Assembly: GCA_021817345.1 (NCBI GenBank)
Contig: JAKAVC010000099.1
Coordinates: forward strand, 18,338-82,337
DNA: 64,000 nt
Direction: 5' to 3'
Source: Deltaproteobacteria bacterium
Lineage (GTDB): Bacteria > Desulfobacterota > Binatia > Binatales > Binataceae
Shown: in pieces, positions 24,399 to 46,780 of the stretch
Numbering within the stretch: the stretch's first letter is position 1
Layout of the letters: each line of letters starts with the position of its first letter
The notes under the pieces: model-generated
The model's input: only the letters and a program-made list of their open reading frames with translations
Database searches by the model: none
What the model was told of the DNA's origin: nothing
Position numbers and translations under genes: made by a program

Positions 24399-25823
24399 CT
24401 ATTGTAGGGTGCTCAGCGCAAACGTGCTGCTCGTGCCGCGCTCCCACCCGTCCCATAGGAAGTCCCGCTCTGTGCCGTCGGCGATCACGCGCAGCGCGTA
24501 GCGCACTTGCTCTTGATAGAACTCGCAGAAGCCGCCCATGCTGGCGACCGAGCCGTTCATCGCGTGCGCCTCGGCGGGGCAGGGCGCCCCGCAGAAATGG
24601 CGAATTGCGCATTCCTTGCAGGCTTCGATGTCTTCGACGCGTCGGCTCGTGACCGACTTGCACGCCTCGCTTTCGAGAATTACCGCAAGATCATCCTCGA
24701 AGATATTACCCGCGCGGAAGACCGGCAGGCCGACGAACTCGCTGCACGGAAACACGTCGCCGTTGGCCGCCACGGCGAAGAAGCAACGGCCCGCACCACA
24801 GGGTGAAATGTCGCACATCAGCCGCCGCGCCGTCGGGGCGAGGATGGCAGTCAGCGTATTGGCGAAGTTTGCAATCACAAGCTTGCGCCCGGTCCGCGCA
24901 TAGAGCTCGTGAGCACGGTCGATCGCGGCGAGGAAATGCGAAGCCGCGGCGCGGTCTGGCGGCTTGATTGCGCGGGAGGCAGGCATCGTGCAGCGAAGCA
25001 CGTTCAGCATCGCGGCAGGGACATGATGCGCATGGAGAAACTCGACCATCCCCGGCAGATGGCGCATGTTCTCGCGCGTGATGGTCGTAATGACGCTCCA
25101 TCTCGGGTAATCCCTGAGGCGCTCCATCGCCGATACAACGGTCGCGTAAGCGCCTTTGCCGGCCCACGAATGCCGCGTGCGATCCGCGATCTCTGCGATC
25201 GGAGCGTCGAGCGATATCCCGATGCCGACGTCGCGCGAGAGCAGGAAGTTCCGCGCGTTCTCGTCCAGCAATGTCGCGTTGGTTTGAATGCCGAAGCGGA
25301 AAACTCCGGCAAAAGCGTCGATGCCGGCGAATACCGCGTCGCGGTTCAGCAGTGGCTCCGCCCCATGGAAGACCATTTGCGGCGGCGGCGCGCCGGGGGG
25401 CTGCGTGTCCTTGAAAAAATGCGCGAGCCGCCCGAGGGCGTCAAGCAACCTGGACGCCGACATGTGCCGGCCGCGCCGGCGAGTCGTTGGCGGAATATAA
25501 CAGTAGGTACAGTTCAGATTGCAGCGGTCGGTCGGGTTGAAGTAGACGGCCGACGGCTTGATGCCGAATCGCAGCGCCTCGACCTCCTGGGTGAAAGCCG
25601 GCAACTTGCGAAGGTAGCGGTCGAGGAGCTTGCGGCCGCTCAGCGCCTCGGCCAGCTTCTCCTTACGCACCAAAGCCCAGAAGGCTGTCTCGGGAGCGAG
25701 CACGGCCATGTAGCGTTCGTGCCCGATATCAAGAACCTGAAATGTCGAGTCGGCGCCGGTGTTCGGATAGGAGCCCCGCAAAAGCGGCTCATGACGGGTC
25801 CGGCCCGTCGCTTTGGCAGCCAT
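24399..25823 (-). CDS. Radical SAM enzyme with C-terminal SPASM domain and N-terminal PqqD/RRE-like extension (putative peptide/cofactor maturase)
   Basis: The radical-SAM CX3CX2C motif is CNLNCTYC, at about residue 103-110. The SPASM motif Cx2Cx5Cx3C is CKECAIRHFCGAPC, with further Cys (CDISPCGAGRC, CEFY). The roughly 100-aa N-terminus contains YMAVLAPETAFWALV, reminiscent of the PqqD/RRE wHTH. Confidence 0.85.
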   Translation of the reverse strand: MAAKATGRTRHEPLLRGSYPNTGADSTFQVLDIGHERYMAVLAPETAFWALVRKEKLAEALSGRKLLDRYLRKLPAFTQEVEALRFGIKPSAVYFNPTDRCNLNCTYCYIPPTTRRRGRHMSASRLLDALGRLAHFFKDTQPPGAPPPQMVFHGAEPLLNRDAVFAGIDAFAGVFRFGIQTNATLLDENARNFLLSRDVGIGISLDAPIAEIADRTRHSWAGKGAYATVVSAMERLRDYPRWSVITTITRENMRHLPGMVEFLHAHHVPAAMLNVLRCTMPASRAIKPPDRAAASHFLAAIDRAHELYARTGRKLVIANFANTLTAILAPTARRLMCDISPCGAGRCFFAVAANGDVFPCSEFVGLPVFRAGNIFEDDLAVILESEACKSVTSRRVEDIEACKECAIRHFCGAPCPAEAHAMNGSVASMGGFCEFYQEQVRYALRVIADGTERDFLWDGWERGTSSTFALSTLQ

Positions 25824-26822
25824 GGGCGTTTACCGAATGAGGCCAATTCGGCCGGGGAGTGTCTGCGACCGTATGCTCGCGTGCATCGAGCTTCGAGCTA
25901 CGCTTCGGCCCAACGGGAACGCCGGCGAGTCGTTGGGGATTTGGCCGACGACCTCGATGCTCCATCGAGGAGAATATAGTGGGTAAGGCCGGTGCCGCCT
26001 GGCGTGCAACGCCTGCGCGTCGCGATCACGTCCTGACCCCTGTGGTTCTGGCTTGAATCCCTACGCTTCATGAGCACGCCCTTCCCGTTCCCTGTCATCC
26101 TCTGGATTTCGTATTGGCGGAAGCGGCGTTTCCGGCAATCAACGCGTCGGAATGACTCATCTGAAATTCCCGTTTCGGAAATTTCAAACACGCGATTTCT
26201 ACCTCGGTGGCCGCACCGGTGTCAACTCGCCGCCCGCTTCGAGCCCTTTCAGTTGCTTTGCAAAACCAGTGTCGCGCCGACCCTCGCCATTATCCGCGTT
26301 GACACGGCGCGGTTGGCGCGATAGCAGAGGATTGAAGCGGGCGAGATGGCAGCAAGGCCCGTAATAATCTTGCGGTCTGAAATCCCGAGTATGCCCAGCG
26401 ACTTCACAATTAAGCGCCGCCGCGGGCGGGTTTCCGAGCCATGAGGACATCTTCCGCCACCGGACGCGGTCCTGCCAGACACGCGAGGCGACCTGCCAAG
26501 GTGATTCCCCTGCCCACGCCGAAGTTCGTGCGACGCAAGCGACTGATTAGGCTTGCGGTTGCACTGGCGGTGGCACTGCTTGCCATCGCGATGGCGGCAA
26601 GGCTCTTCATCGCGCGAGCGACCTTATCGCATTCGTATCGCGTGCAGGAACCGAGTGAACGCGGCCCGGGAATCCTCCCGATGGCCTACCACGCATTGCG
26701 CGCGGTTCCGCACGGCGGAGCCGGAATCCGGGCGTTGTCCGGCGTCTGACCTTTCGAACGTCTTGCCGTCCGACGACAAAAACGCGCTGCCGCCAACGCT
26801 TGGTTTTGCGCAAATCGCGGCG

Positions 26823-27797
26823 ATGGCGGCGGGGCACGCGGAGGCGCGCGCGCTTCAGACCGCGCTCAAGCTTGGAGTTTTCGAGGCGCTGGCCAGGAGC
26901 GACGCGAGCGCCGACGCTCTAGCGCACGCGCTCGGCTGCGACGCCCGGGCAACCGGTCTTCTTGCCAACGCGATGGTGGCAATGGGCCTTCTCGCCAAGA
27001 GCGACGGGCGTTTTCGGCTCGGCGAACCGGCGCGCCGTTATCTGCTCCGGTCTTCACCCGAATACCTGGGCGGCATGATCCTGTTCGACGAAGCGCTGTG
27101 GGACGTATGGGGTCGGCTCGACAAATCGGTCCGAAGCGGCAGGCCGGCGCGCACGCCCGACATGTTTCAGAGCAGACCCGAGGAGACGTTTCGCTTCATA
27201 AGCGCGATGGACAGCCTGGTCCGGGCGCGCGGCGATGCGTGCTACCTTGCGGATAATCTCGATCTCGGCGGCGTAAGCAGAATCATGGACGTGGGCGGAG
27301 GGCCGGGAACTTACGTGGCGGCGATGCTTCGGCGATGGCCCGGGATGCGCGGCGTGATATGCGACCTTCCCGCGACGCTTGCAGTCGCGCGGCAAATCCT
27401 TGCCGAGCGCGAGCCCGACGTGACGGACCGGATCGAACTGGTCGCGCTCGATTACCGCCGCGATGAACTTCCCGGACCGTGCGACGCGCTCTTCATGTCG
27501 AACATCATCCACAGCGAGCCGCCGGAAACCAACCGGATGCTGATGGGCAAGTGCTTTCGCGCGCTCGCGGCGTGCGGGCGCGTGATCATCAAGGATCACA
27601 TCATGAACGCGGAGATGACCGAGCCGCGCGCGGGCGCGATCTTCTCGTTGTACCTGCTGCTCACCACCCACGGGCGCGATTACAGCCTTGACGAAGTGCG
27701 GCGATGGCTCGAAGACGCCGGTTTCACCGCGATCAGGGAGCTTGCGATGAAGGGCGGACCATTCACTTCTTCGCTGGTCGTCGGGGAAAAACCCTGA
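26823..27797 (+). CDS. Class I SAM-dependent O-methyltransferase (family-2 O-MT with N-terminal dimerisation/wHTH domain)
   Basis: LKLGVFEALA...ADALAHALGCDARATGLLANAMVAMGLL is the dimerisation domain. MDVGGGPGTYVAAM is motif I and VICDLP follows. The ORF is open from 26553; ATG 26823 was chosen, so the start is uncertain. Confidence 0.75.
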   Translation: MAAGHAEARALQTALKLGVFEALARSDASADALAHALGCDARATGLLANAMVAMGLLAKSDGRFRLGEPARRYLLRSSPEYLGGMILFDEALWDVWGRLDKSVRSGRPARTPDMFQSRPEETFRFISAMDSLVRARGDACYLADNLDLGGVSRIMDVGGGPGTYVAAMLRRWPGMRGVICDLPATLAVARQILAEREPDVTDRIELVALDYRRDELPGPCDALFMSNIIHSEPPETNRMLMGKCFRALAACGRVIIKDHIMNAEMTEPRAGAIFSLYLLLTTHGRDYSLDEVRRWLEDAGFTAIRELAMKGGPFTSSLVVGEKP

Positions 27798-27852
27798 CAG
27801 AAACATCGGCGCCCGGCCTTGCGCCATCGGGCGCGCCGCGATCTGCTATGGT

Positions 27853-28779
27853 ATGGAGTTCGAGGACCAACTCGCGCGGAGAAAACACCAGCCGATGCAC
27901 AACTCATCCGCGTTCGCTCCGGTTGCGTGGCCCGATGAGCGGCTGACCGTCGCCAACCTCGGCCATGCGACGCTTCTTATGAATTTTTTCGGGGTCCGGC
28001 TGATAAGCGATCCGACGCTGTTCGAGAGGATTGGCGTTTCGCTGAATCCTTTTTTCACGCTGGGACCGAAGCGGATCGTCGCGCCTCCGCTTTCACCGCC
28101 CGAACTCACCCCTGTCGATGTCATCCTGATCACCCACGCGCACATGGACCATCTCGACATCCGTTCGCTCAAGGCGCTCCCGCGAAAAGCGGTCGTGGTC
28201 ACCGCCCGGGGATGCTCGCGGATAATCGGCCCGCTCGGTTACGGCGATGTGAGGGAACTCAGGTGGGGGGAAAGCACCGAGGTTTCAGGCCTCAGGATTA
28301 CCGCGATGGGCGCGCGCCATTGGGGCAAGCGATGGCCGCCGTTTGGAGCGGACTACGGGTTTGCGAGCTACGTACTCGAAAAGCAGGGCCGTCGGATGCT
28401 GCTCGCGTGCGACAGCGCGTACACGGAGCTTTTCAGCGAGCTCTCGCGCAAGCCGCCCGACGTTGCGGCGTTTTCGATAAGCGCGTACAACCCCTTCATC
28501 TGGAATCACGCCAATCCCGAGGAAGTCTGGCGGATGTTCGTAGAGAGCGGCGCCAACCACCTGATTCCGATCCACTGGGGCACGTTCCGGCTGTCGAGGG
28601 AACCGATGCACGAACCGATGGCGCGGCTGATGGCGGCGGCCGGCGACGAAGAGGAGCGAATCGTTATCAGAAAAATCGGCGGCGCATGGAGCCTGCCGAA
28701 AGCGCACGGCGCGAGAGTGCTCGCGCCCGAGGCTGCGCCCGGCGGCGAGCCGCGGACCTCGACGCGAGAAACTCGATGA
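27853..28779 (+). CDS. MBL-fold metallo-hydrolase
   Basis: ILITHAHMDHLD (HxHxDH), followed by distal His/Asp ligands (IPIHWGTF). Confidence 0.75.
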   Translation: MEFEDQLARRKHQPMHNSSAFAPVAWPDERLTVANLGHATLLMNFFGVRLISDPTLFERIGVSLNPFFTLGPKRIVAPPLSPPELTPVDVILITHAHMDHLDIRSLKALPRKAVVVTARGCSRIIGPLGYGDVRELRWGESTEVSGLRITAMGARHWGKRWPPFGADYGFASYVLEKQGRRMLLACDSAYTELFSELSRKPPDVAAFSISAYNPFIWNHANPEEVWRMFVESGANHLIPIHWGTFRLSREPMHEPMARLMAAAGDEEERIVIRKIGGAWSLPKAHGARVLAPEAAPGGEPRTSTRETR

Positions 28780-28796
28780 GCCGGCGGGACGGGGGG

Positions 28797-30389
28797 TCAG
28801 ACCCGCTTTCGCTTTCGGGCGAGATAATCGACCAGCATGTACTCGCCCAGATGGTCGGGACGGGTGTAAAGCGCGCGTCCGCGATTGATCTGGGTCATTT
28901 TCTCCACGAACGCGCGCAGGCTCGGCGAATCGTCGAGCATGAAGGTGTTGATCGTGATGCCGCGGCGCGTGACCCGTTCGACCTCTTTGAGGGTTTCCTG
29001 CGCGGCCCGCATGCTGATACCGCCGAAAGACAGCGGCCACTCGCAGTAAAGACGCTTGTTGAGGAAGTAGGCGGTCGGCTGGCCGTCCGTGATCACGATA
29101 ACGTGCTGGTTGCGCGAGGGATGGCGCGACAGCAGGTCAGCGGCCAGGCGTAGTCCGTCTTGCAGATTGGTGAACGGGTCGCCCATGTTCCACGAGGCTT
29201 CGGGCAGGTCCTTGAGCTTCAACTCGACGGCGCGAGTGAAAAATCCCACTATCGAAAAGTAGTCGCGCGGGAATTTGGAGCGAATCAGCGTCTCCATCGC
29301 CATCGCGACCTTCTTCGCCGCGGCAAACCGCCCCTCCCAGCTCATCGACCACGACATGTCCAGGCACAGCACGGTCGACGACGAGGTGCCGAAATCGTTT
29401 TCGTAAATTTCGAAATCGTCGGGTCCAAGCTCCAGCGGCACGCCCGCCTTGCGCGTGAGCGCGTGCTTCAGCGTGCCGACCAGATTGATATTGAGCGGGT
29501 CGCCGTAGGTGTAGCGCTTGGTTTCGTCCGGACGAATCTCGGTTGTACCGCGATAATCCGTCGCATGGCCGCCGGCGCGATCCTTGAACAGGCTCTGGTA
29601 GATGTCGCGCAGCGCGAGCTGGCCGATTCGCCGCACGCCCTTGGGCGAGAGCTGGAAATGGTCGCCCTTGGGCATCACGTACCCGGACTCGCTCAGCAGC
29701 ACCATCACCTGCTTCAAGTTCTGGAAGTCCTGCAGCGCCTGCTGTCCGAGGATCTGCTGCAAGTCCTCGAGCGAGATGGTCTCGAAGTTGCCCGACATCA
29801 GGTCCTGTTCGAGCTGGCGCATCCGTTCCATCTCGCGCATGAGGTCGAGCGCCTCCTGGTAGCCGAGGCTCTTCGGCCCGTGGAACAGGTGTTGGTTGCG
29901 GTCGCGGAAATTTTCGAGGTCGCGGATATTCTCGTACTCGGAGAGCAGTTCGTCGAAGTCGGCCTTGGCCTGCTGGTCCTCGAACTGGTAGCTCTCGAGC
30001 TTGCGGATGGCCTCGGAAAGGCGGCGAGGGATGCGCTGAAGCTGGCGCTGCTTGTCCTCGACGCCGGGCTTTTTGTCGCGCAGCGAGTCGAGGGTCTGGC
30101 GCTCGCGGTTCAGAAGATCCTCGAGCTTGCGCTCCATCTCGGAGAGCGCGCCCTTCAGATTGAAATCGCGGTAGCGCTGGCGCATCTCCTGGCGAAGCTG
30201 CTCGATAAACTCGTCGAGCCCCATCACGCGCATCCCGTCGAAGTCCATCCCCTGGCGCATCATCCAGTCCATCGCCTGGCGGATGTCGTCGGTGTACGAC
30301 AGGTACTCAGCGAGCTTCTCGAAGACCTTGTCGGCATCGAGCCGTATCCGCTGGGTGCCGTCCCACTGGGTGTAGCGCGTGGTCGCCAT
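28797..30389 (-). CDS. VWA-domain protein with long acidic coiled-coil N-terminal region (ChlD C-terminal-half-like)
   Basis: The C-terminal VWA domain TVLCLDMSWSMSW...VIVITDGQPTA has the MIDAS DxSxS motif. The roughly 400-aa N-terminus is helical and rich in E/R/Q. The start was chosen at MATTRYTQWDG (30389) to avoid a 214-nt overlap. Confidence 0.7.
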   Translation of the reverse strand: MATTRYTQWDGTQRIRLDADKVFEKLAEYLSYTDDIRQAMDWMMRQGMDFDGMRVMGLDEFIEQLRQEMRQRYRDFNLKGALSEMERKLEDLLNRERQTLDSLRDKKPGVEDKQRQLQRIPRRLSEAIRKLESYQFEDQQAKADFDELLSEYENIRDLENFRDRNQHLFHGPKSLGYQEALDLMREMERMRQLEQDLMSGNFETISLEDLQQILGQQALQDFQNLKQVMVLLSESGYVMPKGDHFQLSPKGVRRIGQLALRDIYQSLFKDRAGGHATDYRGTTEIRPDETKRYTYGDPLNINLVGTLKHALTRKAGVPLELGPDDFEIYENDFGTSSSTVLCLDMSWSMSWEGRFAAAKKVAMAMETLIRSKFPRDYFSIVGFFTRAVELKLKDLPEASWNMGDPFTNLQDGLRLAADLLSRHPSRNQHVIVITDGQPTAYFLNKRLYCEWPLSFGGISMRAAQETLKEVERVTRRGITINTFMLDDSPSLRAFVEKMTQINRGRALYTRPDHLGEYMLVDYLARKRKRV

Positions 30390-30403
30390 CGCATGCGCCC
30401 GTC

Positions 30404-31819
30404 TCAGGCGTGGTAGGAGAAGCGCCCTCCTTCGCGATCCTTGTTGAGCTTCTGATGAAGATGCAGGCCCTCGAAGATAAACTCGCTCGCCGCCGCCATC
30501 AGGCCCGGCGTCTCGAGCGGGCCGATCGAATCGATCGCCTCCCTGAGTCCGGCAATCTCGCGGATCGGCTCCATGTACTCGGAGGCGGGCGCGGTATCGG
30601 AAACCTCGACGCCCCATCCCTGCTCGAAGTAGCCGATCACCTGCTTCAGATTGGCATCGTCGAGCTTGAAGTGATGGTCGAAGACCTTGAGCACGGCGCG
30701 GTTGACGAGGCGCTCGATCAGGTCCTCCTCCTTCTTGTCCTCGCCGACGTATTCGAGTTCTATCTTGCCGGCGGTCGAGGCGTACAGCGAATGCAGGTCG
30801 GAAAGGCGCGGGACGATCTCGTGCTCGCCGTTTATGACCGCGCGCTTCTCCGCGTTGGAGAGCACCGACTCGAAATTGTTGATCGTGACCCTGACGGAGA
30901 CGCCTGAATTCTGGTTGATCTCGTTGGAGGCGCGCGCCTCGAAGGTTATCTGCGCGACGATCTCCTTCATGAACTGAGGCACCCGAAGCGCCATCGCCTC
31001 CGGCGCCGGATAGGCCGCCTCCTGCTCCATGATCGTGATCTCGTGCTCGCGGGTCTTCGGGTAATGGGTCCGGATTTGGACGTCGAAGCGATCCTTGAGC
31101 GGGGTGATGATGCGCCCGCGCGAGGTGTAGTCCTCCGGATTCGCGCTGGCCACGAAAATCATGTCTATCGGGAGCCGGATCTTGTAGCCCTTTATCTGGA
31201 CGTCCTTTTCCTCCATCAGGTTGAACAGCCCGACCTGCACCTTCTCGGTGAGGTCGGGAAGCTCATTGATGGCGAAAATTCCGCGATTGGTGCGCGGGAT
31301 GAGTCCGTAATGGATGGTCTCCTCGTCGGCCAGATAGCGCCCCTCGGCCACCTTGATCGGATCGATTTCGCCGATCAGGTCGGCAACCGAAACGTCGGGA
31401 GTCGCAAGCTTTTCGGCGTAGCGATGCTCGCGGCCGATCCAGACGATCTCGAGTTCGTCGCCCTTCTCGGCAAGTTTCCGCTTGCAGCCCTGGCAGATCG
31501 GCTCGTATGGATTATCGTTGACCTCGCATCCCTTGACCGCCGGAACATATTCGTCGAGCAGCAGGGCAAGCGAGCGGATAATTCGCGACTTGGCCTGTCC
31601 GCGTTCTCCGAGGAAGACCATGTGATGGCCGGCCAGGATACCGTTTTCGATCTCGGGCAGAACCGTGTCGTCGTAGCCGACGACGCCCGCGATGGCTCTT
31701 TCGCGCCGGCGCAGGCGGTCGAGCAGATTGTCCCGCATCTCGAGACGCACCGGCTTGACCTTGTAGCCGGACCGCTTGAGATCCCCGAGTGTATGTAGAT
31801 TCAGCAGCGTTTGGTCCAT
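30404..31819 (-). CDS. ChlI/BchI-family (Mg-chelatase-like) AAA+ protein with deviant Walker A/B
   Basis: It is collinear with BchI: VKGCEV resembles VEGCPV, and VSVADLIGEIDP...LIPRTNRG resembles VVDLPLGVSEDR...LLARANRG. The sensor-1 motif is ASANPED and the Arg-finger is PLKDRF. Walker A reads GERGQAKS (A replaces the second Gly) and Walker B reads FAINE (Asn instead of Asp). A CQGC insert is present. Confidence 0.75.
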   Translation of the reverse strand: MDQTLLNLHTLGDLKRSGYKVKPVRLEMRDNLLDRLRRRERAIAGVVGYDDTVLPEIENGILAGHHMVFLGERGQAKSRIIRSLALLLDEYVPAVKGCEVNDNPYEPICQGCKRKLAEKGDELEIVWIGREHRYAEKLATPDVSVADLIGEIDPIKVAEGRYLADEETIHYGLIPRTNRGIFAINELPDLTEKVQVGLFNLMEEKDVQIKGYKIRLPIDMIFVASANPEDYTSRGRIITPLKDRFDVQIRTHYPKTREHEITIMEQEAAYPAPEAMALRVPQFMKEIVAQITFEARASNEINQNSGVSVRVTINNFESVLSNAEKRAVINGEHEIVPRLSDLHSLYASTAGKIELEYVGEDKKEEDLIERLVNRAVLKVFDHHFKLDDANLKQVIGYFEQGWGVEVSDTAPASEYMEPIREIAGLREAIDSIGPLETPGLMAAASEFIFEGLHLHQKLNKDREGGRFSYHA

Positions 31820-31844
31820 GTGGGATTCCGCCGGGTGTCACTAT

Positions 31845-32387
31845 TTAGGATATTGCAGTTCGGATCCCTTTGAAAAGCGGGGCAAGCGTTCTGAAGCTTT
31901 CCGTAAGGTGCTGCGAGATAACGCGCGTCCCGCTGAGCACCGGCATGAAATTCGTGTCGCCGTCCCATCTCGGGACGACGTGCCAATGCAAATGCTCGGC
32001 GAATCCGGCTCCCGCAATGCGGCCGATATTGGCCCCGACGTTGAAACCGGCGGGGGAAAGCGCCTTTCTAAGCCGCTCGATCGAAGAGGAAACCAGTTCG
32101 GCGAGCAGCGCCCGCTCGGCCTCGGTGAGCAGCTCGGGCGTGGCGAGATGACGGCGGGGCGCCACCATCAGATGGCCGTTGTTGTAGGGGTAGCGATTCA
32201 GCATCACGAGCGCGTCGGCGTCCTGATGAAGGACGAGCCGGCTCCTGCGCTCGGCGGCGCTCAGCTTGCCCACGCAGAAAATGCATCGCTGGCCGCCCGA
32301 GACCGCGCGGCGGATATAGGCGGAACGCCACGGCGCCCACAGTTCAAGGGCGCTGCGTTCGCTACCGTGCCCGCCGCTCCGCGCCAT
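31845..32387 (-). CDS. HIT-family (histidine triad) hydrolase
   Basis: The HIT motif is HLHWHVVPRW and the N-terminus is ..WAPWR..Y..CIFC. Confidence 0.75.
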   Translation of the reverse strand: MARSGGHGSERSALELWAPWRSAYIRRAVSGGQRCIFCVGKLSAAERRSRLVLHQDADALVMLNRYPYNNGHLMVAPRRHLATPELLTEAERALLAELVSSSIERLRKALSPAGFNVGANIGRIAGAGFAEHLHWHVVPRWDGDTNFMPVLSGTRVISQHLTESFRTLAPLFKGIRTAIS

Positions 32388-32658
32388 TTACCTCTGTCCG
32401 GAGTTCCTTGCCCGGGCGAAAGAATGGAAATCTCTTGGCTTCAACGCGCACCGATTCGCCGGTTTTGGGGTTGCGTCCCTGGCGGGCCGCGCGGGGTTTT
32501 ACCCCGAAGGTTCCGAATCCGCGAATTTCTATCCGATCGCCGCGCGCCAGCACCTCCGCCATCGCGTCGAACATCGCATTGACGATGGTTTCCGACTCAC
32601 GATGCGAAAACTTCCGGCACCGGTTGAGAAGCTCCTCGATGATCCCCCGTTTGGTCAT
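32362..32658 (-). CDS. ihfB: Integration host factor / HU-family DNA-binding protein (ihfB by position after rpsA)
   Basis: MTKRGIIEEL...RIEIRGFGTFGVKPRAARQGRNPKTGESV is present. The cmk-rpsA-ihfB synteny is conserved. The start was taken at MTKRG (32658). Confidence 0.75.
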   Translation of the reverse strand: MTKRGIIEELLNRCRKFSHRESETIVNAMFDAMAEVLARGDRIEIRGFGTFGVKPRAARQGRNPKTGESVRVEAKRFPFFRPGKELRTEVNGAERRAR

Positions 32659-32701
32659 CGACAGCGAACCATCCGAATCGTCGCCGCTCGGGCGGGCGCG
32701 C

Positions 32702-34456
32702 CTAGCGGTCGCGTCCGCGTCCCGCACGTGATGCTCCGCGCTCGCCGCCGTTCTCGTCGCGGTCGAGCCTTAACTCCTCATTAAGAATGTCTTCCATCGA
32801 AAAGCGCGCCGCTTCGCGCTCGCGGCGCAGGTAGGCCTGCATCTCCTCGCGCTCCTCGTGCTGCTTGAGCGCCTTGATCGAGAGGCCGATACGCCGTTCC
32901 TTGGGTTCGACCTGCACCACCAGGGCCTCGACCTCGTCTCCGACCTTGAACAGCGACGACGGCTTGTCGACCCGCTCCGAACTCAACTGGGAAATGTGGA
33001 TCAGGCCCTCGATCCCTTCCTCGAGTTCCACGAACACGCCGAAGTCCGCGATCGAGCTAACCTTGCCCTTGACCCTGGTATTGAGCGGATAGCGCTCGGC
33101 GATAGTGTCCCACGGATCGGAGCCGAGCTGTTTCACGCCCAGGCTGACGCGCTCGTTCTCGACGTCGATGCCGAGTACGACCGCCTCGATCTCGTCACCC
33201 TTCTTCGCCACTTCGGAGGGGTGACGGACTTTCTTGGTCCAGGAAAGATCCGAGATGTGAACCAGGCCATCGATCCCGGGCTCGATCTCGACGAATATTC
33301 CGAAGTCGGTGATCGACTTGACCTTGCCCTTGACCCTGCTGCCCACCGGATGCACCTGGGCGAGCGCCTGCCACGGATTGGGCTCGGTCTGCTTGAGCCC
33401 GAGCGAGATGCGCCGGTTGGCTTCGTCGACCCCAAGCACCTGGACTTCCACCTCGTCGCCGGGATTGACCAGCTTGGAGGGATGAACCGTGCGCTTGCTC
33501 CAGGTCATCTCGGATACGTGGATGAGCCCCTCGACGCCTTTCTCCAGCTCGACGAAGGCGCCGTAGTCGGTCACGCTGACGACCTTGCCCTTTATCCGCG
33601 CGCCCGGCGGATAGTTGTCGGCGACCTTGGTCCACGGGTCGGGCATGATCTGTTTCATCCCGAGCGAGACGCGCTCGCGCGACTGGTCGTACTTGAGAAC
33701 CACGACCTTGACCTTGTCGCCGACCTTGAGAACTTCGGAGGGATGCTGGATGCGCCCCCACGACATGTCCGTGATGTGAAGCAGGCCGTCGATTCCGCCG
33801 AGATCGATGAACGCGCCGTAATCGGTGATGTTCTTGACGGTGCCTTCGAGGATGACGCCCTCTTCGAGAACCCGAAGCGTCTGCTCCTTGAGTTCGGCGC
33901 GCTCGTGCTCCAAAACGCTGCGGCGCGACACGACCACGTTGCCGCGCGCGCGGTTGAACTTCAGTATCTGGAAGCGCCCGCGCTGACCGATATAGCGGTC
34001 AAGGTTGCGGGCGGGACGAACGTCGACATGGGAGCCGGGCAGAAAAGCCGGCACCCCGATATCCACCTTGAGGCCGCCTTTGACCTTGCCGAGGATGATT
34101 CCCTCGACCGGAGTCTCGGTTTGAAACGCGCGCTCCAGTTCCCGCCAGACCTTGAACTTCTCGGCCTTGGCGTGCGAGAGCATCACGGTGCCGCTTTCGC
34201 CCTCGGTGCCCTCGAAAAAGACATCGACCTCGTCGCCTTCCTTGACGGTGACGTTTCCTTCCGCGTCAAGGAACTCGACGAGCGGGACGCGGCCCTCGCA
34301 CTTGTAGTTGATATCCACAATGACGCTGTCGCGCGTGACGAGCAGGACCTTTCCGACCAGGACATCGCCGGGCCGGGGAGCCGTCAAACTCTCTTCGATC
34401 AACGACTCGAATTCATTGTCGCCTCCGCTCAACTTGTCAGGCAAAGCTTTCTCCAT
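32702..34456 (-). CDS. rpsA: 30S ribosomal protein S1
   Basis: There are six tandem S1 domains and it is 584 aa. Confidence 0.95.
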   Translation of the reverse strand: MEKALPDKLSGGDNEFESLIEESLTAPRPGDVLVGKVLLVTRDSVIVDINYKCEGRVPLVEFLDAEGNVTVKEGDEVDVFFEGTEGESGTVMLSHAKAEKFKVWRELERAFQTETPVEGIILGKVKGGLKVDIGVPAFLPGSHVDVRPARNLDRYIGQRGRFQILKFNRARGNVVVSRRSVLEHERAELKEQTLRVLEEGVILEGTVKNITDYGAFIDLGGIDGLLHITDMSWGRIQHPSEVLKVGDKVKVVVLKYDQSRERVSLGMKQIMPDPWTKVADNYPPGARIKGKVVSVTDYGAFVELEKGVEGLIHVSEMTWSKRTVHPSKLVNPGDEVEVQVLGVDEANRRISLGLKQTEPNPWQALAQVHPVGSRVKGKVKSITDFGIFVEIEPGIDGLVHISDLSWTKKVRHPSEVAKKGDEIEAVVLGIDVENERVSLGVKQLGSDPWDTIAERYPLNTRVKGKVSSIADFGVFVELEEGIEGLIHISQLSSERVDKPSSLFKVGDEVEALVVQVEPKERRIGLSIKALKQHEEREEMQAYLRREREAARFSMEDILNEELRLDRDENGGERGASRAGRGRDR

Positions 34457-34533
34457 GTGGTGGAACCTTCCGGGAAACTTCAGGACAGTAGCGATACTTA
34501 CAACCGGGATTCACCCGTTTCAAGTCCTTCTAA

Positions 34534-35211
34534 CTAAACCGCGGACCTGGACCGCACGCGGGTTCTGAGTTCTTCGACCACTTCCGTTATCGAAAGACCC
34601 GTCGTGTCGATCACTATCGCGTCATCGGCGCGCCGAAGCGGTGCGAGTTCCCGAGCGGTGTCGCGCCGGTCACGCTCGATAAGCTGGCTTAGCACTTCGC
34701 CACGATCGGCGGCGACACCTTTTTTTCGCAGTTCAGCCCATCGGCGCTCCGCGCGAACCTCAACCTGCGCATCGAGGTAAAACTTGAACTCCGCATCCGG
34801 AAACACCGCGGTGCCGATATCCCTTCCCTCCATCACGACCCCGCCCTTCTCTCCAGCCGCGCGCTGCAATTCGCGCATCCGCGCCCGCACCGGAGCAAGC
34901 GCGGAGAAACGTGAAGCAAGGTCACTGACTTCGGGATCTGAAATGATATTGGAAATATCGCGACCGTTGAGCGTTATCCGCTCGCCATCAATTTCGACGT
35001 GAACGGATTGTAACACAGACTCGACCCTTTTCTCCACACCTGGAGCGTCGGCTTTCACTCCCGCGTCGCGCAACGCGACCGCGACCGCCCGATACATCGC
35101 GCCCGTGTTCAGGTAGGTGAAGCCGAGCGCGCGCGCCAGTTCGCGCGCCACGGTTGACTTGCCCGCTCCGACCGGGCCGTCGATCGCGATTACCGGCCGC
35201 GTCCGTTTCAC
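34534..35211 (-). CDS. cmk: Cytidylate kinase
   Basis: IAIDGPVGAGKSTVARELARALGFTYLNTGAMYRA. Confidence 0.9.
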   Translation of the reverse strand: MKRTRPVIAIDGPVGAGKSTVARELARALGFTYLNTGAMYRAVAVALRDAGVKADAPGVEKRVESVLQSVHVEIDGERITLNGRDISNIISDPEVSDLASRFSALAPVRARMRELQRAAGEKGGVVMEGRDIGTAVFPDAEFKFYLDAQVEVRAERRWAELRKKGVAADRGEVLSQLIERDRRDTARELAPLRRADDAIVIDTTGLSITEVVEELRTRVRSRSAV

Positions 35212-42307: not shown

Positions 42308-43546
42308 ATGAAGAACGGGTTGGTTGCGATGCTGGTCGCGGCGGCGGCGCTTGCGATTCTGGCGTCGTCGGCTGCGGTTGCCGGCGAGATCCGGATTGGA
42401 GTCGGTTCGGTCGGCCCGATCTCGCCCGAGGGCGAATACCGGATACAGCGGGTGGTCGGATCGATTCCCAATATCGACGTGGTGCCTATCGTGCCGCCCG
42501 GCGGAATCGATGCGTGCGTAAAGAGGTTCGTCGCGGGCGAGGCGGACGACAGGCTCGATGGGGTGCTGGTCGTCAGCGTGCCGACGGGATCGTTCAAGGC
42601 GGTGCGCGGCAGCAGGGAGGCCACCTTCAGCGGGACCTACCGAATCTGGCTGCTCAACCTGTCAACGCTTGAGGAAGACAGCCATGAATTCACCTTCCAG
42701 GACGAGGAGCCGGTGGTGAGCGGACTCTCGGCGGTCTTCGCGATGCCGGCCGACCTGCTCTCGGAGCGCTCGGGGCACGGCAGGCTCGTTTCGAGCAATG
42801 TCTACCAGGCCTACGAATCAATTCAGTCGCGGGTTGAAGGAAAAATGGTCGCCGCAACCAGGCTCTATCTCGCGACCTCGCCAATCCGGCAGATTGGACC
42901 GCTCAATGCGCTCGAATGCGCCCATAGGCTGGTCGAACGCGGAGACGCCGAGACCGCGATGGCGGTGTTCAAGAGCATGGGCGTCGATAATCCGCAGGTG
43001 AAGGCGATGATGGCAAGGGCGCGCGAGAAGCTGCTGCGCGCCGAGGCGCAAAAGCTGCTCGGCCAGAGCCTGGGCGCGCTCGCAGGCGGCAATCCCGAGC
43101 AGGCGCGCACGCTCGTCGAGGCGTATGCCAAGGCGCCAGCCGCCGATCCGTCGCAGGCACAGGCGGTGCGAGAGGCGCTCGCGTCTTTCTCGCCGCCCGC
43201 CGCGAAGACCTCGCTCGATACGCTGCTCAAACACGACGTTCCCGCCCTAGACCACGCCGCGTTCGTCGCGATGATCGAACAAATATTCAGCGACGGGACC
43301 GGAACCAGGGCTCCCATCGTGCAAACCGGCGCCTCGCAGGTCAGCGTGGAGGACGGCGGAGCGCCGAGCGGCCTCAAAACCCAGCTTGACGCCTACGCGC
43401 ACGCGATTGGAGAAAGCGCTCGGCTGATGAGCCTTAGATGCGGCTGCGCGGCGACCGCCGTCCTGACGGGTCAGGAGGCCGGGCAACCGCTGCTGAGGGC
43501 GCGCTTCCAATCCTCTTTCAAGAGGCCTGAGGTCGGGCTACCCTAG
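42308..43546 (+). CDS. Secreted hypothetical protein (signal peptide, helical Ala-rich C-terminal half)
   Basis: A signal peptide MKNGLVAMLVAAAALAILASSAAVAGE is present. It is 412 aa and I recognise no catalytic motif. Confidence 0.5.
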   Translation: MKNGLVAMLVAAAALAILASSAAVAGEIRIGVGSVGPISPEGEYRIQRVVGSIPNIDVVPIVPPGGIDACVKRFVAGEADDRLDGVLVVSVPTGSFKAVRGSREATFSGTYRIWLLNLSTLEEDSHEFTFQDEEPVVSGLSAVFAMPADLLSERSGHGRLVSSNVYQAYESIQSRVEGKMVAATRLYLATSPIRQIGPLNALECAHRLVERGDAETAMAVFKSMGVDNPQVKAMMARAREKLLRAEAQKLLGQSLGALAGGNPEQARTLVEAYAKAPAADPSQAQAVREALASFSPPAAKTSLDTLLKHDVPALDHAAFVAMIEQIFSDGTGTRAPIVQTGASQVSVEDGGAPSGLKTQLDAYAHAIGESARLMSLRCGCAATAVLTGQEAGQPLLRARFQSSFKRPEVGLP

Positions 43547-44020: not shown

Positions 44021-46780
44021 CTAATCGCCCGCCGAGTCCGGCGCGCCCTGCCCGAGCTTGTTGCCAAGCTTTTGCATCTCGCTGCCAAAGGTGGACCAGT
44101 CGCCAGCCTTGAGCGCCTCGATCGCTCGATTGTAGTAACCGGCCGCCTCCCGCAGGTCCGCGGGAGGCGGCGCGCTGCGGGCAATCGCCTTCGGTGTCGT
44201 GGGCGCAACCTTCGCTATCGTCGGCGCAGCCGGCCCCGCCGGCATTGTGAACAGCGCGTTAAGCGTCGAACTGAGCGTCTGACCCATGACCACCTGGTCG
44301 CTGTATGACGCGATTACACGCTGAAGCTCGGGCAATTGCCCGTTCTCGGCGCGCAGGTAAAGCGGCTCAACATAGAGCAGCGAATCCTCGATGGGAATGA
44401 CGAGCAGGTTTCCCAGCACCACCTTGGAACCCATCTGGTTCCACAGCGAGAGCTGGCGCGAGATGTCGGGACTCTGATTGATGCGCGCCTGGATCTGATA
44501 GGGACCGTAAAACAGCCGGTCCTTCGAGAATTCGTATTCGAACAGATGGCCGTAGTCGCTCCCGTCGCATCGCGCCGCCAGCCACGCGATCATGTTGTCG
44601 CGTCCCTGCGGCACCATCGGAAGCATCAGCATGTACTCTTCATGCTTCTCCCCGGGCAGCCGCATGATCACGTAATACGGCTGCATCGGGACCGTTTCGC
44701 CCTGGTAATTCTCGCGCGGGAAATTCCACTGGTCCTCTCGGTTATAGAAGACCTGCGGATCGGTCATGTGGTAGATGCGGTAGATGTCGGCCTGGACGAG
44801 AAACATGTCCTCGGGGTAGCGGATATGCGCGCGCAACCCGTCGGGCATCATGGCGAGCGGCTTGAACAGGGTCGGGAAGATCCGCTCCCAGGTCTGGATT
44901 ATCGGGTCGGTCGGGTCCGCGACGTAAAGGGTGACCGTGCCGTTGTAGGCATCCACGACCGCCTTGATGGAGTTGCGGATATAGTTGATACCGTCGGGAT
45001 TGCGCTGCGAATAGGGATACTCGTTGCTGGTCGTGTAGCCGTCCACGATCCAGAACAGCCGTCCGCCGATGGTCACGATATACGGGTCGTGGTCCAACGT
45101 CAGGAACGGCGCAAGCGTGGAGACGCGCTCCATTATATTGCGCCGTATCATGATGCGGCTTTTGGCGATGATATTCCCGGTGAGGAGAAGATTGATGTCG
45201 CGATAGTAGTACGAAAAGAGCAACCTGCGGAAAAATCCGCTGACCGGCACTCCGCCCGTGCCCTTGTAGAACGCGAACGCGTTGTCGGCGCCGATCGGAT
45301 AGTCGAACTCGGGCGTCGCCCCGTCAACCACGCAGTATACCGGGCTTCCCTCGCCGAAATAGATCGCGGGTTGCTTTATCTTGATACCCACGTCGGAGTC
45401 GGCCGGAATATCCTTTACATAGAAGATCGGCAGGCCTTCGGAGTCCTTCTTGTTGACCGGACTCATCACGATCCCGCTTCCGTGGGTGAACTTGAGATGG
45501 CGGTTAACCCAGGTCTGCGCGTTCTGCGGGAGCAGGTCCACGTTGAGCTCGCGCGCCGACAGCATCACCTCGGTGTACTGTCCGTTTATCCAGTAGCGGT
45601 CGATGTCAACGTCCTTGAAATTGTAGTAGAGGCGGATTTCCTGGAGCTGGCGATAAGTCGCAAGCAGCGGCCGGGGATCCCAGAGCCGGATGTTCTTGAT
45701 GGTCGGCTCGTCTTGCGTGAGCGAGGTGGGCGTGAGCTTTCCTTTCCCGCCAAAGCTCTTCACGTCGAACTTGTTGACGTCGTAGGCTTGCCGCGTCATC
45801 TGGATATTGCGCTCGATATAGGGCTTTTCGATCCGAAGCTCGTCCGGCTTGACCCATAGCCTCTCGATAACCGGCGCGGCGAAGCTCAGCAGCAGAGACG
45901 GCCCGAAGACGATCACGAAAGCCAGCGCCGGAAGCCTGATCCCGCGCTCTCTTACGTTTGCGACGCATAACCCGGCGGCGACGATCGAGAGCGCGATCAG
46001 CACCCACAATCCCGGTTGCCACAATACGTGATCGACGTAGCGCAGTCCGAAGACCACCCCGTTGCCGTGCAGCAGAAGGTCGTAGCGCGAGATCCAGTAG
46101 CTCATCGCGCGCTGCAAAAAGAAAATTCCGACCAGCACCGAAAGATGCGCCGCCGCGCCCGAGCCTATCCGCGGGGGCGACTCGCGAAAATCAAGCGCCC
46201 CGCGTATCCAGTAGATTCCTCCCGCCATCGCGGCCGCCAGAAACAGGATGAGCAGGAAGAGATCGCGCAGATCGCCAAGCAGCGGAAGCGCAAATACATA
46301 AAATCCGACGTCGCGGCCGAAGGCGTGATCGCTCACGTGAAACGGCAACGCGTAAAACGCCTTCAGATACGTGGCCCATCCCGCGGCTTCGCCCTGCGCC
46401 GGCAGGATCGCGAGCACCGCCGCGATTATCAGCGCGAGCAGCCGCCACGGAATCCGATCGCTGAACGCGCGAATCAGCTCGGGCAGGTTTATCTCGGTCA
46501 CCTCGTCGTGCCGGCGCACGACGTGGAGCCTTTCGCGCTCCTGGCTCTGCCCAAGCGCGACCAGCGCGTTTACAGCGATCGTCACGAACGCGACCACCCA
46601 TACCACGGTGAAGATCGAGACCTGGGCGGCGACGATTCGCTTGAAGACGTCGCGATAGCCGAGCGAAGTAAACCACAGAAAATCGACGAAGAACTGATCC
46701 GCGGTGCCAAGGACGATGAGCGCGGCGATTACAATCGCCGCGATTCCGAACAGGATAAGCCGCGAGCGCATCCGTGTCAT
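44021..46780 (-). CDS. UPF0182-family large integral membrane protein
   Basis: It is 919 aa, with an N-terminal multi-TM region (FFVDFLWFTSLGYRDVF) and a large extracytoplasmic domain, matching the UPF0182 layout. Confidence 0.8.
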   Translation of the reverse strand: MTRMRSRLILFGIAAIVIAALIVLGTADQFFVDFLWFTSLGYRDVFKRIVAAQVSIFTVVWVVAFVTIAVNALVALGQSQERERLHVVRRHDEVTEINLPELIRAFSDRIPWRLLALIIAAVLAILPAQGEAAGWATYLKAFYALPFHVSDHAFGRDVGFYVFALPLLGDLRDLFLLILFLAAAMAGGIYWIRGALDFRESPPRIGSGAAAHLSVLVGIFFLQRAMSYWISRYDLLLHGNGVVFGLRYVDHVLWQPGLWVLIALSIVAAGLCVANVRERGIRLPALAFVIVFGPSLLLSFAAPVIERLWVKPDELRIEKPYIERNIQMTRQAYDVNKFDVKSFGGKGKLTPTSLTQDEPTIKNIRLWDPRPLLATYRQLQEIRLYYNFKDVDIDRYWINGQYTEVMLSARELNVDLLPQNAQTWVNRHLKFTHGSGIVMSPVNKKDSEGLPIFYVKDIPADSDVGIKIKQPAIYFGEGSPVYCVVDGATPEFDYPIGADNAFAFYKGTGGVPVSGFFRRLLFSYYYRDINLLLTGNIIAKSRIMIRRNIMERVSTLAPFLTLDHDPYIVTIGGRLFWIVDGYTTSNEYPYSQRNPDGINYIRNSIKAVVDAYNGTVTLYVADPTDPIIQTWERIFPTLFKPLAMMPDGLRAHIRYPEDMFLVQADIYRIYHMTDPQVFYNREDQWNFPRENYQGETVPMQPYYVIMRLPGEKHEEYMLMLPMVPQGRDNMIAWLAARCDGSDYGHLFEYEFSKDRLFYGPYQIQARINQSPDISRQLSLWNQMGSKVVLGNLLVIPIEDSLLYVEPLYLRAENGQLPELQRVIASYSDQVVMGQTLSSTLNALFTMPAGPAAPTIAKVAPTTPKAIARSAPPPADLREAAGYYNRAIEALKAGDWSTFGSEMQKLGNKLGQGAPDSAGD

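Follow-up and report, generated by a model that had tools for sequence, protein, structure and literature searches.

What does a bacterium do with a protein related to ChlI, subunit I of magnesium chelatase, when its gene stands beside one for a von Willebrand factor A (VWA) domain protein in a context that holds no chelatase? The question is raised by positions 28797-31819 of the window analysed here, a stretch of 64,000 nucleotides (nt) from a Deltaproteobacteria bacterium of the Binataceae (assembly GCA_021817345.1, contig JAKAVC010000099.1, positions 18,338 to 82,337). Two co-oriented minus-strand open reading frames (ORFs) fill this interval, the upstream one encoding an AAA+ ATPase and the downstream one its VWA partner. 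An earlier note, made from the letters of this DNA, had read the two genes as a ChlD split into an inactive AAA+ domain and a VWA protein. Judged by domain composition and alignment, the pair is instead the Binataceae orthologue of the Rv0958/Rv0959 family (Mycobacterium tuberculosis), a widespread bacterial two-protein module. The locus is an ordinary orthologue of a catalogued, functionally orphan family and not a novelty of this genome; the interest lies with the family itself, in its very strong conservation, its wide mis-annotation and an Asn fixed at a position that is regarded as an invariant Asp.

Family identity and distribution

The pair was assigned to the Rv0958/Rv0959 family because the VWA partner possesses the domains Mb0984_helical and Rv0959_3rd and matches actinobacterial members end to end. 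A database copy of the VWA protein, 530 residues long and 100% identical (P0289), carries PF27532 Mb0984_helical, PF13519 VWA_2 and PF27098 Rv0959_3rd, and by precomputed Pfam annotation this architecture is shared by P0289 and all 120 homologues among the matches listed; the Mb0984_helical/Rv0959_3rd combination also occurs in proteins from Micromonospora, from locus L087 and from Lapillicoccus/Nocardioidaceae. Identity to the Micromonospora VWA homologue is 30% over 543 residues (E=1e-63), and the C-terminal 290 residues are 38% identical to a 365-residue planctomycete-like version. The AAA+ protein, for its part, is 44-46% identical over its full length to proteins of Micromonospora, Tsukamurella and Nocardia, and its alignments to full-length members (40-68% identity) span the whole protein. 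The link to Rv0958 was made through the Pfam domains of the partner, the actinobacterial orthologues and gene order, the alignment being one that did not include the Rv0958 sequence itself. In Tsukamurella, purN-purH lie upstream of the AAA-VWA genes, an order which we take to be the Rv0956-Rv0959 arrangement of M. tuberculosis.

A search of 1.84 billion cluster representatives returned 682 clusters at E<1e-30 and 2,184 at E<1e-10. Members recovered together with their genomic context came from Micromonospora, an actinobacterial metagenome-assembled genome, Tsukamurella, Thermomicrobium roseum, planctomycete-like contigs, and Bacteroidota-like contigs with Por_Secre_tail neighbours; this wider taxonomy was assembled from cluster look-ups, contig look-ups and a plasmid collection, the scan of genome contigs having given only close Binataceae relatives. 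Neither the 50,697 phage records nor the 2.9 million viral contigs searched contained a relative, and the four matches in the plasmid collection were all to chromosome-like, non-mobilisable replicons.

The names under which the family is filed are misleading. JGI calls the two products 'magnesium chelatase subunit I' and 'uncharacterized protein with vWA domain', and PGAP calls them 'sigma 54-interacting transcriptional regulator' and 'VWA domain-containing protein'; thousands of genomes carry the pair under wrong names, which have already entered the reasoning of published papers. At least one of these takes Rv0958 literally as a Mg-chelatase making Mg-porphyrin in M. tuberculosis.

The AAA+ protein and its nucleotide site

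The AAA+ gene (30404..31819, minus strand, as are all features of the two genes described below) encodes 471 residues. With the single sequence as query in HMMER, its best matches in the PDB were BchI (1g8p, E=1.4e-9) and ChlI (8osf, E=3e-9), followed by LonB, and a profile of 18 family sequences gave 8osf at E=1.1e-10 and LonB 4zpx at E=3e-9, the latter over the region from Walker B to sensor-2. The block-for-block alignment with BchI/ChlI that the earlier note had drawn by hand was reproduced by both kinds of search, with GERGQAKS falling on GDRGTGKS, SANPED on GSGNPEE, LKDRF on LLDRFG, and FAINE on the Y(I/V)DE of BchI/ChlI as well as on the FIDE of LonB. Pfam Mg_chelatase (PF01078) passed its gathering cut-off (30.4 bits against 20.3) over residues 168-229 only, and AAA_5 was just over its own; the MoxR, sigma-54, MCM and PrkA AAA families stayed under theirs. 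The chelatase equivalogs were not reached: scores were 49.8 bits against a cut-off of 466.95 for TIGR02030 (BchI-ChlI), 46.7 against 779.45 for TIGR02442 ('putative cobaltochelatase'), and 32.3 against 499.55 for TIGR02031 (BchD-ChlD). A structure model of the protein belongs to the helix-2-insert clade of MoxR, BchI, RavA, MCM and ComM. The alignments to BchI/ChlI end near residue 276; a family-specific C-terminal alpha/beta domain (residues 341-471; 30407..30799), absent from ChlI/BchI, was modelled by AlphaFold2 (AF2) with a predicted local distance difference test (pLDDT) score of mostly 83-96 and is conserved across the family alignment.

The two residues most critical for handling Mg-ATP had both been thought altered, and only one of them is. 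Motifs were counted in the 150 best cluster representatives (50%-identity clusters), only where the region was present, and residue invariance was taken from an 18-sequence family alignment. Walker A (GERGQAKS, residues 71-78; 31586..31609) has the family pattern G-x-[R/K]-G-Q-[A/G]-K-[S/T]: in the alignment and in the cluster representatives alike, no variation occurs at G71, G74, Q75 or K77, and residue 78 stays Ser or Thr. Among the 79 representatives in which the motif was found, 64 have Ala at position 76 and 15 have Gly. Because the Lys and the Ser/Thr are invariant and position 76 varies between Ala and Gly, we read this Walker A as not degenerate. An Ala before the Walker A Lys is also known from active MCM proteins. 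The replacement in Walker B (FAINE, residues 182-186; 31262..31276) was borne out: N185 aligns with the Asp of ChlI, BchI and LonB, and the canonical Glu is retained as E186. The dipeptide here is NE in 136 of the 140 representatives with the motif, DE in one and QE in one, the other two being spurious matches in fragments.

The remainder of the site is maintained just as strictly. The sensor-1 region SANPED (N227; 31130..31147) follows the pattern [ST]ANP[ED]D in each of the 126 representatives with the motif, and the Arg-finger region LKDRF (R244; 31085..31099), whose role is assigned by homology, has D243 and R244 invariant and conforms to L[KR]DR[FILV] in 115 out of 115. SGVSVR (R310; 30890..30907), whose location in the lid domain makes it a candidate sensor-2, shows no variation at S308 and R310, and SGVSxR was present in all 62 representatives with the motif. 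K77, N185, E186, N227, R244 and R310 are all invariant in the family alignment. Every residue of the site except the Walker-B Asp is invariant or nearly so, unlike what is seen in a decaying pseudo-ATPase, and the proposal of an inactive AAA+ domain finds no support here; the Walker-B Asn is best read as a fixed, selected family character within an otherwise fully maintained nucleotide site, and not as decay.

As for the Cys-containing insertion with its CQGC element, which the earlier note had singled out, the triad C98/C109/C112 in the insertion after the Walker A helix (31484..31528) is real and is limited to some lineages. Many family members lack it, although all have P104 and P107. A family-wide Zn-ribbon formed by CQGC was ruled out, the cysteines not being conserved.

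A comparative study of P-loop NTPases describes the Walker-B Asp as 'strictly conserved' and reports that Asp-to-Asn mutants keep NTP binding and lose activated hydrolysis (PMC9599734). The simplest prediction from the family-wide Asn is that the protein probably holds ATP tightly and that hydrolysis is slow or conditional; given that the Glu, the sensors and the Arg finger are conserved, hydrolysis, or at least sensing of the gamma-phosphate, would still matter. It is conceivable, and we put it forward with more doubt than confidence, that the Rv0958-type proteins are a naturally occurring AAA+ family whose Walker-B Asp has permanently become Asn (rarely Gln) under strong selection on the other catalytic residues, and that this family has a distinct nucleotide cycle and a housekeeping client common to Actinomycetota (M. 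tuberculosis among them), Chloroflexota-related bacteria, Planctomycetota, Bacteroidota and Binatota. One possible version of such a cycle is an ATP-latched ring in which hydrolysis is triggered only by the MIDAS-VWA partner, so called for its metal ion-dependent adhesion site (MIDAS), or by the client. The family could also serve as a test of proposals that make the Asp the indispensable proton acceptor in all P-loop NTPases (PMC9599734).

Two departures from the NE dipeptide were observed. A 44%-identical AAA+ relative of the P0415/P0157 lineage (L085, 7001-8395) has a canonical DELPDL Walker B and an altered sensor-1, TANPVD. No VWA gene occurs within 7 kb of it, and the gene immediately upstream encodes a genuine sigma-54 activator; the relative may represent a sister or ancestral-type lineage. 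Lineage P0167 is the one with QE.

The VWA partner, operon and gene neighbourhood

The VWA gene (28797..30389), of Rv0959 type and COG4867-like, encodes 530 residues and is separated by a 14-nt spacer (30390..30403, read directly from the sequence) from the stop codon of the AAA+ gene, a spacing that indicates operonic coupling. The mechanically called ORF is longer, with 606 residues from a start at 30617 that overlaps the AAA+ gene; the true start is the ATG at 30389 (MATTRYTQW...), because the identical database protein has 530 residues and close homologues all have 529-545. Its AF2 model, built with an alignment of database homologues (17 sequences in two clades), has an overall pLDDT of 73. 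When this model was used in Foldseek, only generic VWA/MIDAS domains were retrieved and no match to the helical domain was obtained; a sequence search of the PDB gave only a marginal match to a pilin VWA, and NCBIfam gave no match to TIGR02031 and only TIGR02442, at 26.1 bits.

Where a coiled-coil or acidic linker had been expected, the protein begins with a folded all-helical domain (Mb0984_helical; residues 1-235; 29685..30389) of 11 helices at pLDDT about 84-95 (about 90 taken together), confidently modelled over residues 19-234 and with a net charge of only -11 over its 235 residues. Short planctomycete-like homologues of 365-420 residues are without this domain. It is followed by a helix/beta-hairpin/helix element in the AF2 secondary structure (residues 236-272; 29574..29684), in which L247, P249, K250, R253, A259 and L260 are conserved and which is possibly winged-helix-like. 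Then comes a linker of 63 residues (273-335; 29385..29573) with a pLDDT of 26-35, in which H275, G281, R286, D297, D325, F326 and E330 nevertheless do not vary and G273, G296, T306 and R313 hardly do; the linker is a candidate contact element for an AAA+ ring or its pore, a role modelled on those of the NorD finger and the CobT shaft. The VWA domain proper (residues 336-530; 28800..29384; Pfam VWA_2, E=2.3e-8) ends in a basic tail, RKRKRV, which, with the D521-Y522-L523 motif, is conserved in all lineages checked. The MIDAS that the earlier note had seen in it is complete, consisting of DMSWS (D344-M-S346-W-S348; 29346..29360), the Thr of FTNLQ (T407; 29169-29171) and the Asp of ITDGQ (D435; 29085-29087); the five metal-site residues D344, S346, S348, T407 and D435 do not vary among Binataceae, Actinomycetota and the planctomycete-like homologues, in alignments spanning 30-92% identity.

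Within the window, the pair closes a minus-strand housekeeping block comprising mutL, miaA, accA, pheA, hisC, tyrA, cmk, rpsA, an HU/IHF-type gene, a HIT-family gene and the AAA+ and VWA genes. The HIT gene ends 25 nt before the AAA+ start, and a metallo-beta-lactamase (MBL)-fold gene converges on the VWA gene from the opposite side. The G+C content of the window is 60-67%, with no compositional break at the pair, and a scan of 28400-34700 for promoters and terminators gave signals no more than expected by chance. The arrangement from pheA onward (pheA-hisC-tyrA-cmk-rpsA-HU-HIT-AAA-VWA) recurs in the genomes of about 80 Binataceae species. Across Binataceae species, the median identity to the window protein is 80.3% for the AAA+ protein and 86.2% for the VWA protein, compared with 85.9% for ribosomal protein S1, 61.4% for HIT, 63.4% for Cmk and 70.3% for TyrA; the neighbours other than S1 range over 61-74%. 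The pair is, in other words, about as conserved within Binataceae as ribosomal protein S1.

The pairing itself extends much further. A VWA gene is adjacent to or within 3 kb of the AAA+ gene in 8 of 12 diverse loci as well as in all Binataceae loci, and tight coupling recurs in other lineages, with an 8-nt overlap in Tsukamurella and gaps of 2-3 nt in Micromonospora and L087. Outside Binataceae, the neighbours of the pair are unrelated among loci, and the synteny with the upstream HIT and downstream MBL-fold genes stops short of other phyla.

Several departures from the usual arrangement were recorded. Two Binataceae genomes have the AAA+ and VWA genes split by insertions of 1.2-1.5 kb (L071, 9423-10890; L067, 5302-6513); that in L071 carries DUF559-like and HNH-like endonuclease ORFs, which suggests a selfish element tolerated by the operon. 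An insertion of about 2 kb between HIT and AAA+ (L006-L008, 6000-8000) contains PIN/VapC-like and rhodanese-like sulfurtransferase ORFs, and the HIT-AAA+ linkage is therefore not obligatory. In Tsukamurella (L092, 5134-15341), the pair adjoins a gene for an ArsR/SmtB metalloregulator, and an rpmB-rpmG-rpsN-rpsR cluster that includes a gene for a GTP-binding protein lies 3 kb away. The setting resembles a zinc-starvation locus of alternative ribosomal proteins, and it could be coincidence or a hint of metal or ribosome biology. On a planctomycete-like contig, a gene with a LON_substr_bdg domain directly follows the VWA gene (L090, 10042-10674), and elsewhere a ClpS-like gene adjoins the AAA+ gene (L088, 8730-8909).

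Other features of the window touch the pair only by position or not at all. Next to the convergent MBL-fold gene (27853-28779, plus strand) are an O-methyltransferase gene with a dimerisation domain (26553-27797, plus strand) and, adjoining these, a radical SAM gene with a SPASM domain (24399-25823, minus strand), so that 24399-28779 may be a small modification cluster or one resembling those for ribosomally synthesized and post-translationally modified peptides. A 919-residue membrane protein of the conserved, function-orphan UPF0182 family is encoded at 44021-46780 (Pfam E=5.7e-283), and a 412-residue ORF at 42308-43546 has coding-like G+C at third codon positions and no Pfam match at E<=0.001.

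Proposed function, rival explanations and comparison with known systems

Because of the tight operonic pairing, the invariant MIDAS and the position of the AAA+ protein in the clade of MoxR, ChlI, CobS and NorQ, we lean, by analogy, towards a machine for remodelling or assembly, built from a hexameric AAA+ ring and a MIDAS adaptor and comparable to NorQD, CobST and the MoxR-VWA pairs. The earlier note had itself named a chaperone or maturation role of MoxR-VWA type among its options, and this is the most reasonable reading of the data. The AAA+ protein would form a ring, as its clade implies, with ATP at inter-subunit sites made up of K77/S78, N185/E186, N227, R244 and R310, and the Walker-B Asn would make it probable that the ATP is held tightly and hydrolysed slowly or only when triggered. 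In NorQD, a finger of the VWA protein enters the NorQ pore and the C-terminus of NorD touches the ring, and ATP-driven twisting of the NorD linker enables metal insertion (PMC13036017); in CobST, the CobT shaft is inserted into the CobS ring, with CobN bound on the far side. By analogy, the co-translated VWA protein may dock on the ring through its linker (residues 273-335), its conserved basic C-terminus, or both. Its invariant MIDAS would then grip an acidic residue of a client protein, and nucleotide-driven motion of the ring, passed on through the adaptor, would remodel, assemble or metallate that client. In this scheme we infer a hexamer, a contact between the AAA+ and VWA proteins, the adaptor role of the latter, slow hydrolysis and the existence of a client; the client is probably a broadly conserved cellular component encoded away from the pair.

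The literature yielded no functional study of Rv0958, Rv0959, MSMEG_5512 or related tags, only screen hits, in agreement with the earlier statement that stand-alone homologues are functionally uncharacterised. MSMEG_5512, the Rv0958 orthologue of M. smegmatis, is a soluble, expressed protein. Earlier screens with ClpC1 had already picked it up; its affinity for ClpC1 is in the low-micromolar range, and ClpC1P1P2 did not degrade it in vitro (PMC10433963). Rv0959 is an entry in a list of host-pathogen quantitative trait loci. Taken with the LON_substr_bdg and ClpS-like neighbours in L090 and L088, the ClpC1 interaction makes for a faint proteostasis theme. The links of the client to the ribosome or RNA polymerase (RNAP), to proteostasis and to metal cofactors each come from a single clue and are weak. 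A function-orphan pair that is under strong constraint and is present in important pathogens is nonetheless a reasonable target for functional work.

Some observations weigh against a ring with a VWA adaptor. The AAA+ gene is without a VWA gene within 7 kb in several lineages (L084, L089, L088), the loci so affected including those that are Bacteroidota-like, L088 and the DE-type L085, and the ATPase may therefore also act alone or with an unlinked partner. No third component or client gene emerged as a shared neighbour when 17 flanking proteins from 11 loci were compared all-against-all by BLASTP. The low pLDDT of the linker may reflect just poor modelling, since the alignment was shallow, and the Walker-B Asn could mean a complete absence of hydrolysis.

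This last point leads to the view closest to the split ChlD of the earlier note, namely a catalytically dead scaffold, which would do no more than bind nucleotide, or would bind nothing, would offer a fixed platform as ChlD's AAA module does, and would need a separate active motor of ChlI or MoxR type. The loss of activated hydrolysis in Asp-to-Asn mutants (PMC9599734) speaks for it, as do the replaced Asp itself and an order of AAA+ module, spacer and MIDAS-VWA that resembles ChlD. Nevertheless, we regard it as unlikely: the Walker A Lys and Ser/Thr, E186 and the sensor-1, Arg-finger and sensor-2 positions do not vary among proteins of 40-90% identity, which is unexpected of a non-catalytic site; the ChlI model gives a higher score than the ChlD model (49.8 and 32.3 bits, both far under the cut-offs); no second AAA+ gene stands consistently beside the pair in the diverse loci; and the VWA protein, whose N-domain is helical and unrelated, has no AAA-like module. 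An anti-phage or conflict system of the MoxR-VWA ternary type, also suggested earlier, is far less probable. AAA+/VWA pairs are known in conflict systems (PMC7159879), and there is a weak Pfam bpMoxR match (20.2 bits against a cut-off of 27). Against this, PADLOC returned only a marginal coiled-coil match to LmuB (E=0.004, 13.8 bits), which is not credible, phage and viral-contig relatives were lacking from the collections searched and the plasmid matches were chromosome-like, and the pair is a single-copy, syntenic part of the housekeeping block in about 80 Binataceae genomes, conserved at the level of S1 and with no linked effector gene. The least probable reading, a sigma-54-dependent transcriptional activator, draws on the PGAP product name and a weak Sigma54_activat match (18.9 bits, under the Pfam cut-off of 20.2), and it is effectively refuted because the GAFTGA loop is missing; neither a GAFTGA-like motif nor an HTH_8 domain was found in the AAA+ protein. 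To our knowledge, Actinomycetota, in which the AAA+ family is abundant, lack sigma-54.

Two further proposals remain. A remodeller of nucleic-acid machines, working on the ribosome or RNAP much as eukaryotic Rea1/Mdn1 works on pre-60S particles, would be a specific form of the ring-and-adaptor machine, and we give it slightly less credence than the dead scaffold. Affinity purification of RNAP after formaldehyde cross-linking enriched MSMEG_5512, but such lists are rich in bystanders and FLAG-MSMEG_5512 recovered no DNA (PMC7092591). The place of the pair directly downstream of cmk-rpsA-HU/IHF-HIT in the Binataceae genomes, its S1-like conservation there, the winged-helix-like element and basic tail of the VWA protein, and the ribosomal-protein cluster 3 kb from the Tsukamurella pair are all consistent with this client, although the rpsA linkage is limited to Binataceae and other neighbourhoods differ. 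A genuine class-I metal chelatase motor, in which the two proteins supply the I- and D-type subunits, and a gene at another locus the large CobN/ChlH/BchH subunit, of a Mg- or Co-chelatase, appears improbable. In its favour are BchI/ChlI and TIGR02442 as the best sequence matches and the B12 resistance conferred on a B12-sensitive strain of M. marinum by a single transposon insertion 49 bp upstream of the orthologue (PMC11237697). The scores, however, are about 10-fold under the equivalog cut-offs, the AAA-like N-domain by which ChlD/BchD are defined is missing from the VWA partner, and family members are present in non-phototrophs, Bacteroidota-like and planctomycete-like genomes among them. 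As the earlier note had observed, no CobN/BchH-type gene is present in the window: a Pfam scan of its 32 larger ORFs, among them every one long enough for such a protein, gave none. The three longest encode an AcrB-type pump, the UPF0182 protein and a glucodextranase-like protein. The CobN family was likewise absent from the Pfam-annotated neighbours in 14 diverse loci, one of which (L086) had no Pfam data. Mycobacteria, moreover, have a separate ChlI/ChlD-type protein for CobN.

The ring with a MIDAS-VWA adaptor, which we continue to favour, is best seen against the systems already described. Its closest likeness is to the Rv0958/Rv0959 pair, with which it shares an AAA+ protein of about 450-510 residues, the Walker A pattern and a NELPDL Walker B, followed by a VWA protein composed of a helical N-domain, Rv0959_3rd and MIDAS-VWA. 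It differs from this pair in that the Binataceae VWA protein has 530 residues and the actinobacterial ones 650-700, because its helical domain is without an insert of about 130 residues; in the Cys triad of the window protein, which many members lack; and in its neighbourhood, which is rpsA-HU-HIT in Binataceae and purN-purH in Mycobacteriales. With Mg-chelatase it has in common the combination of an AAA+ protein with a MIDAS-VWA protein, which supports the earlier recognition of a ChlI-related AAA+ protein with such a partner in a non-chelatase context, and, with ChlI/BchI and ChlD/BchD, the motif blocks LPLGATEDRVxGxxD (against EKLATPDVxxADLIGxxD), the NPE of sensor-1 and DRF; it departs from Mg-chelatase in having NE in place of DE in Walker B, an extra C-terminal domain and a distribution among non-phototrophs, and from ChlD/BchD in a VWA partner without an AAA-like module or a Pro-rich or acidic linker. 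The signatures of MoxR are not reached (AAA_3 at 20.9 bits against a cut-off of 27, and no AAA_lid_2 match). Unlike NorQ-NorD, CbbQ-CbbO, RavA-ViaA and CobS-CobT, the pair has the additional C-terminal domain of about 130 residues, a long ChlI-like insertion and the Walker-B Asn, and, unlike MoxR-type pairs and CobS-CobT, a VWA partner with an unrelated N-terminal domain and no linked client operon (nor, cbb, cobN). Archaeal-type LonB is similar from Walker B to sensor-2 and differs by its protease domain, which is lacking here. PrkA-YeaH, with a DUF444 VWA-like partner, is another orphan AAA+/VWA-like pairing; compared with PrkA/YeaG-YeaH, the Rv0958-type protein scores 15.4 bits for AAA_PrkA against a cut-off of 25 and has no kinase-like domain.

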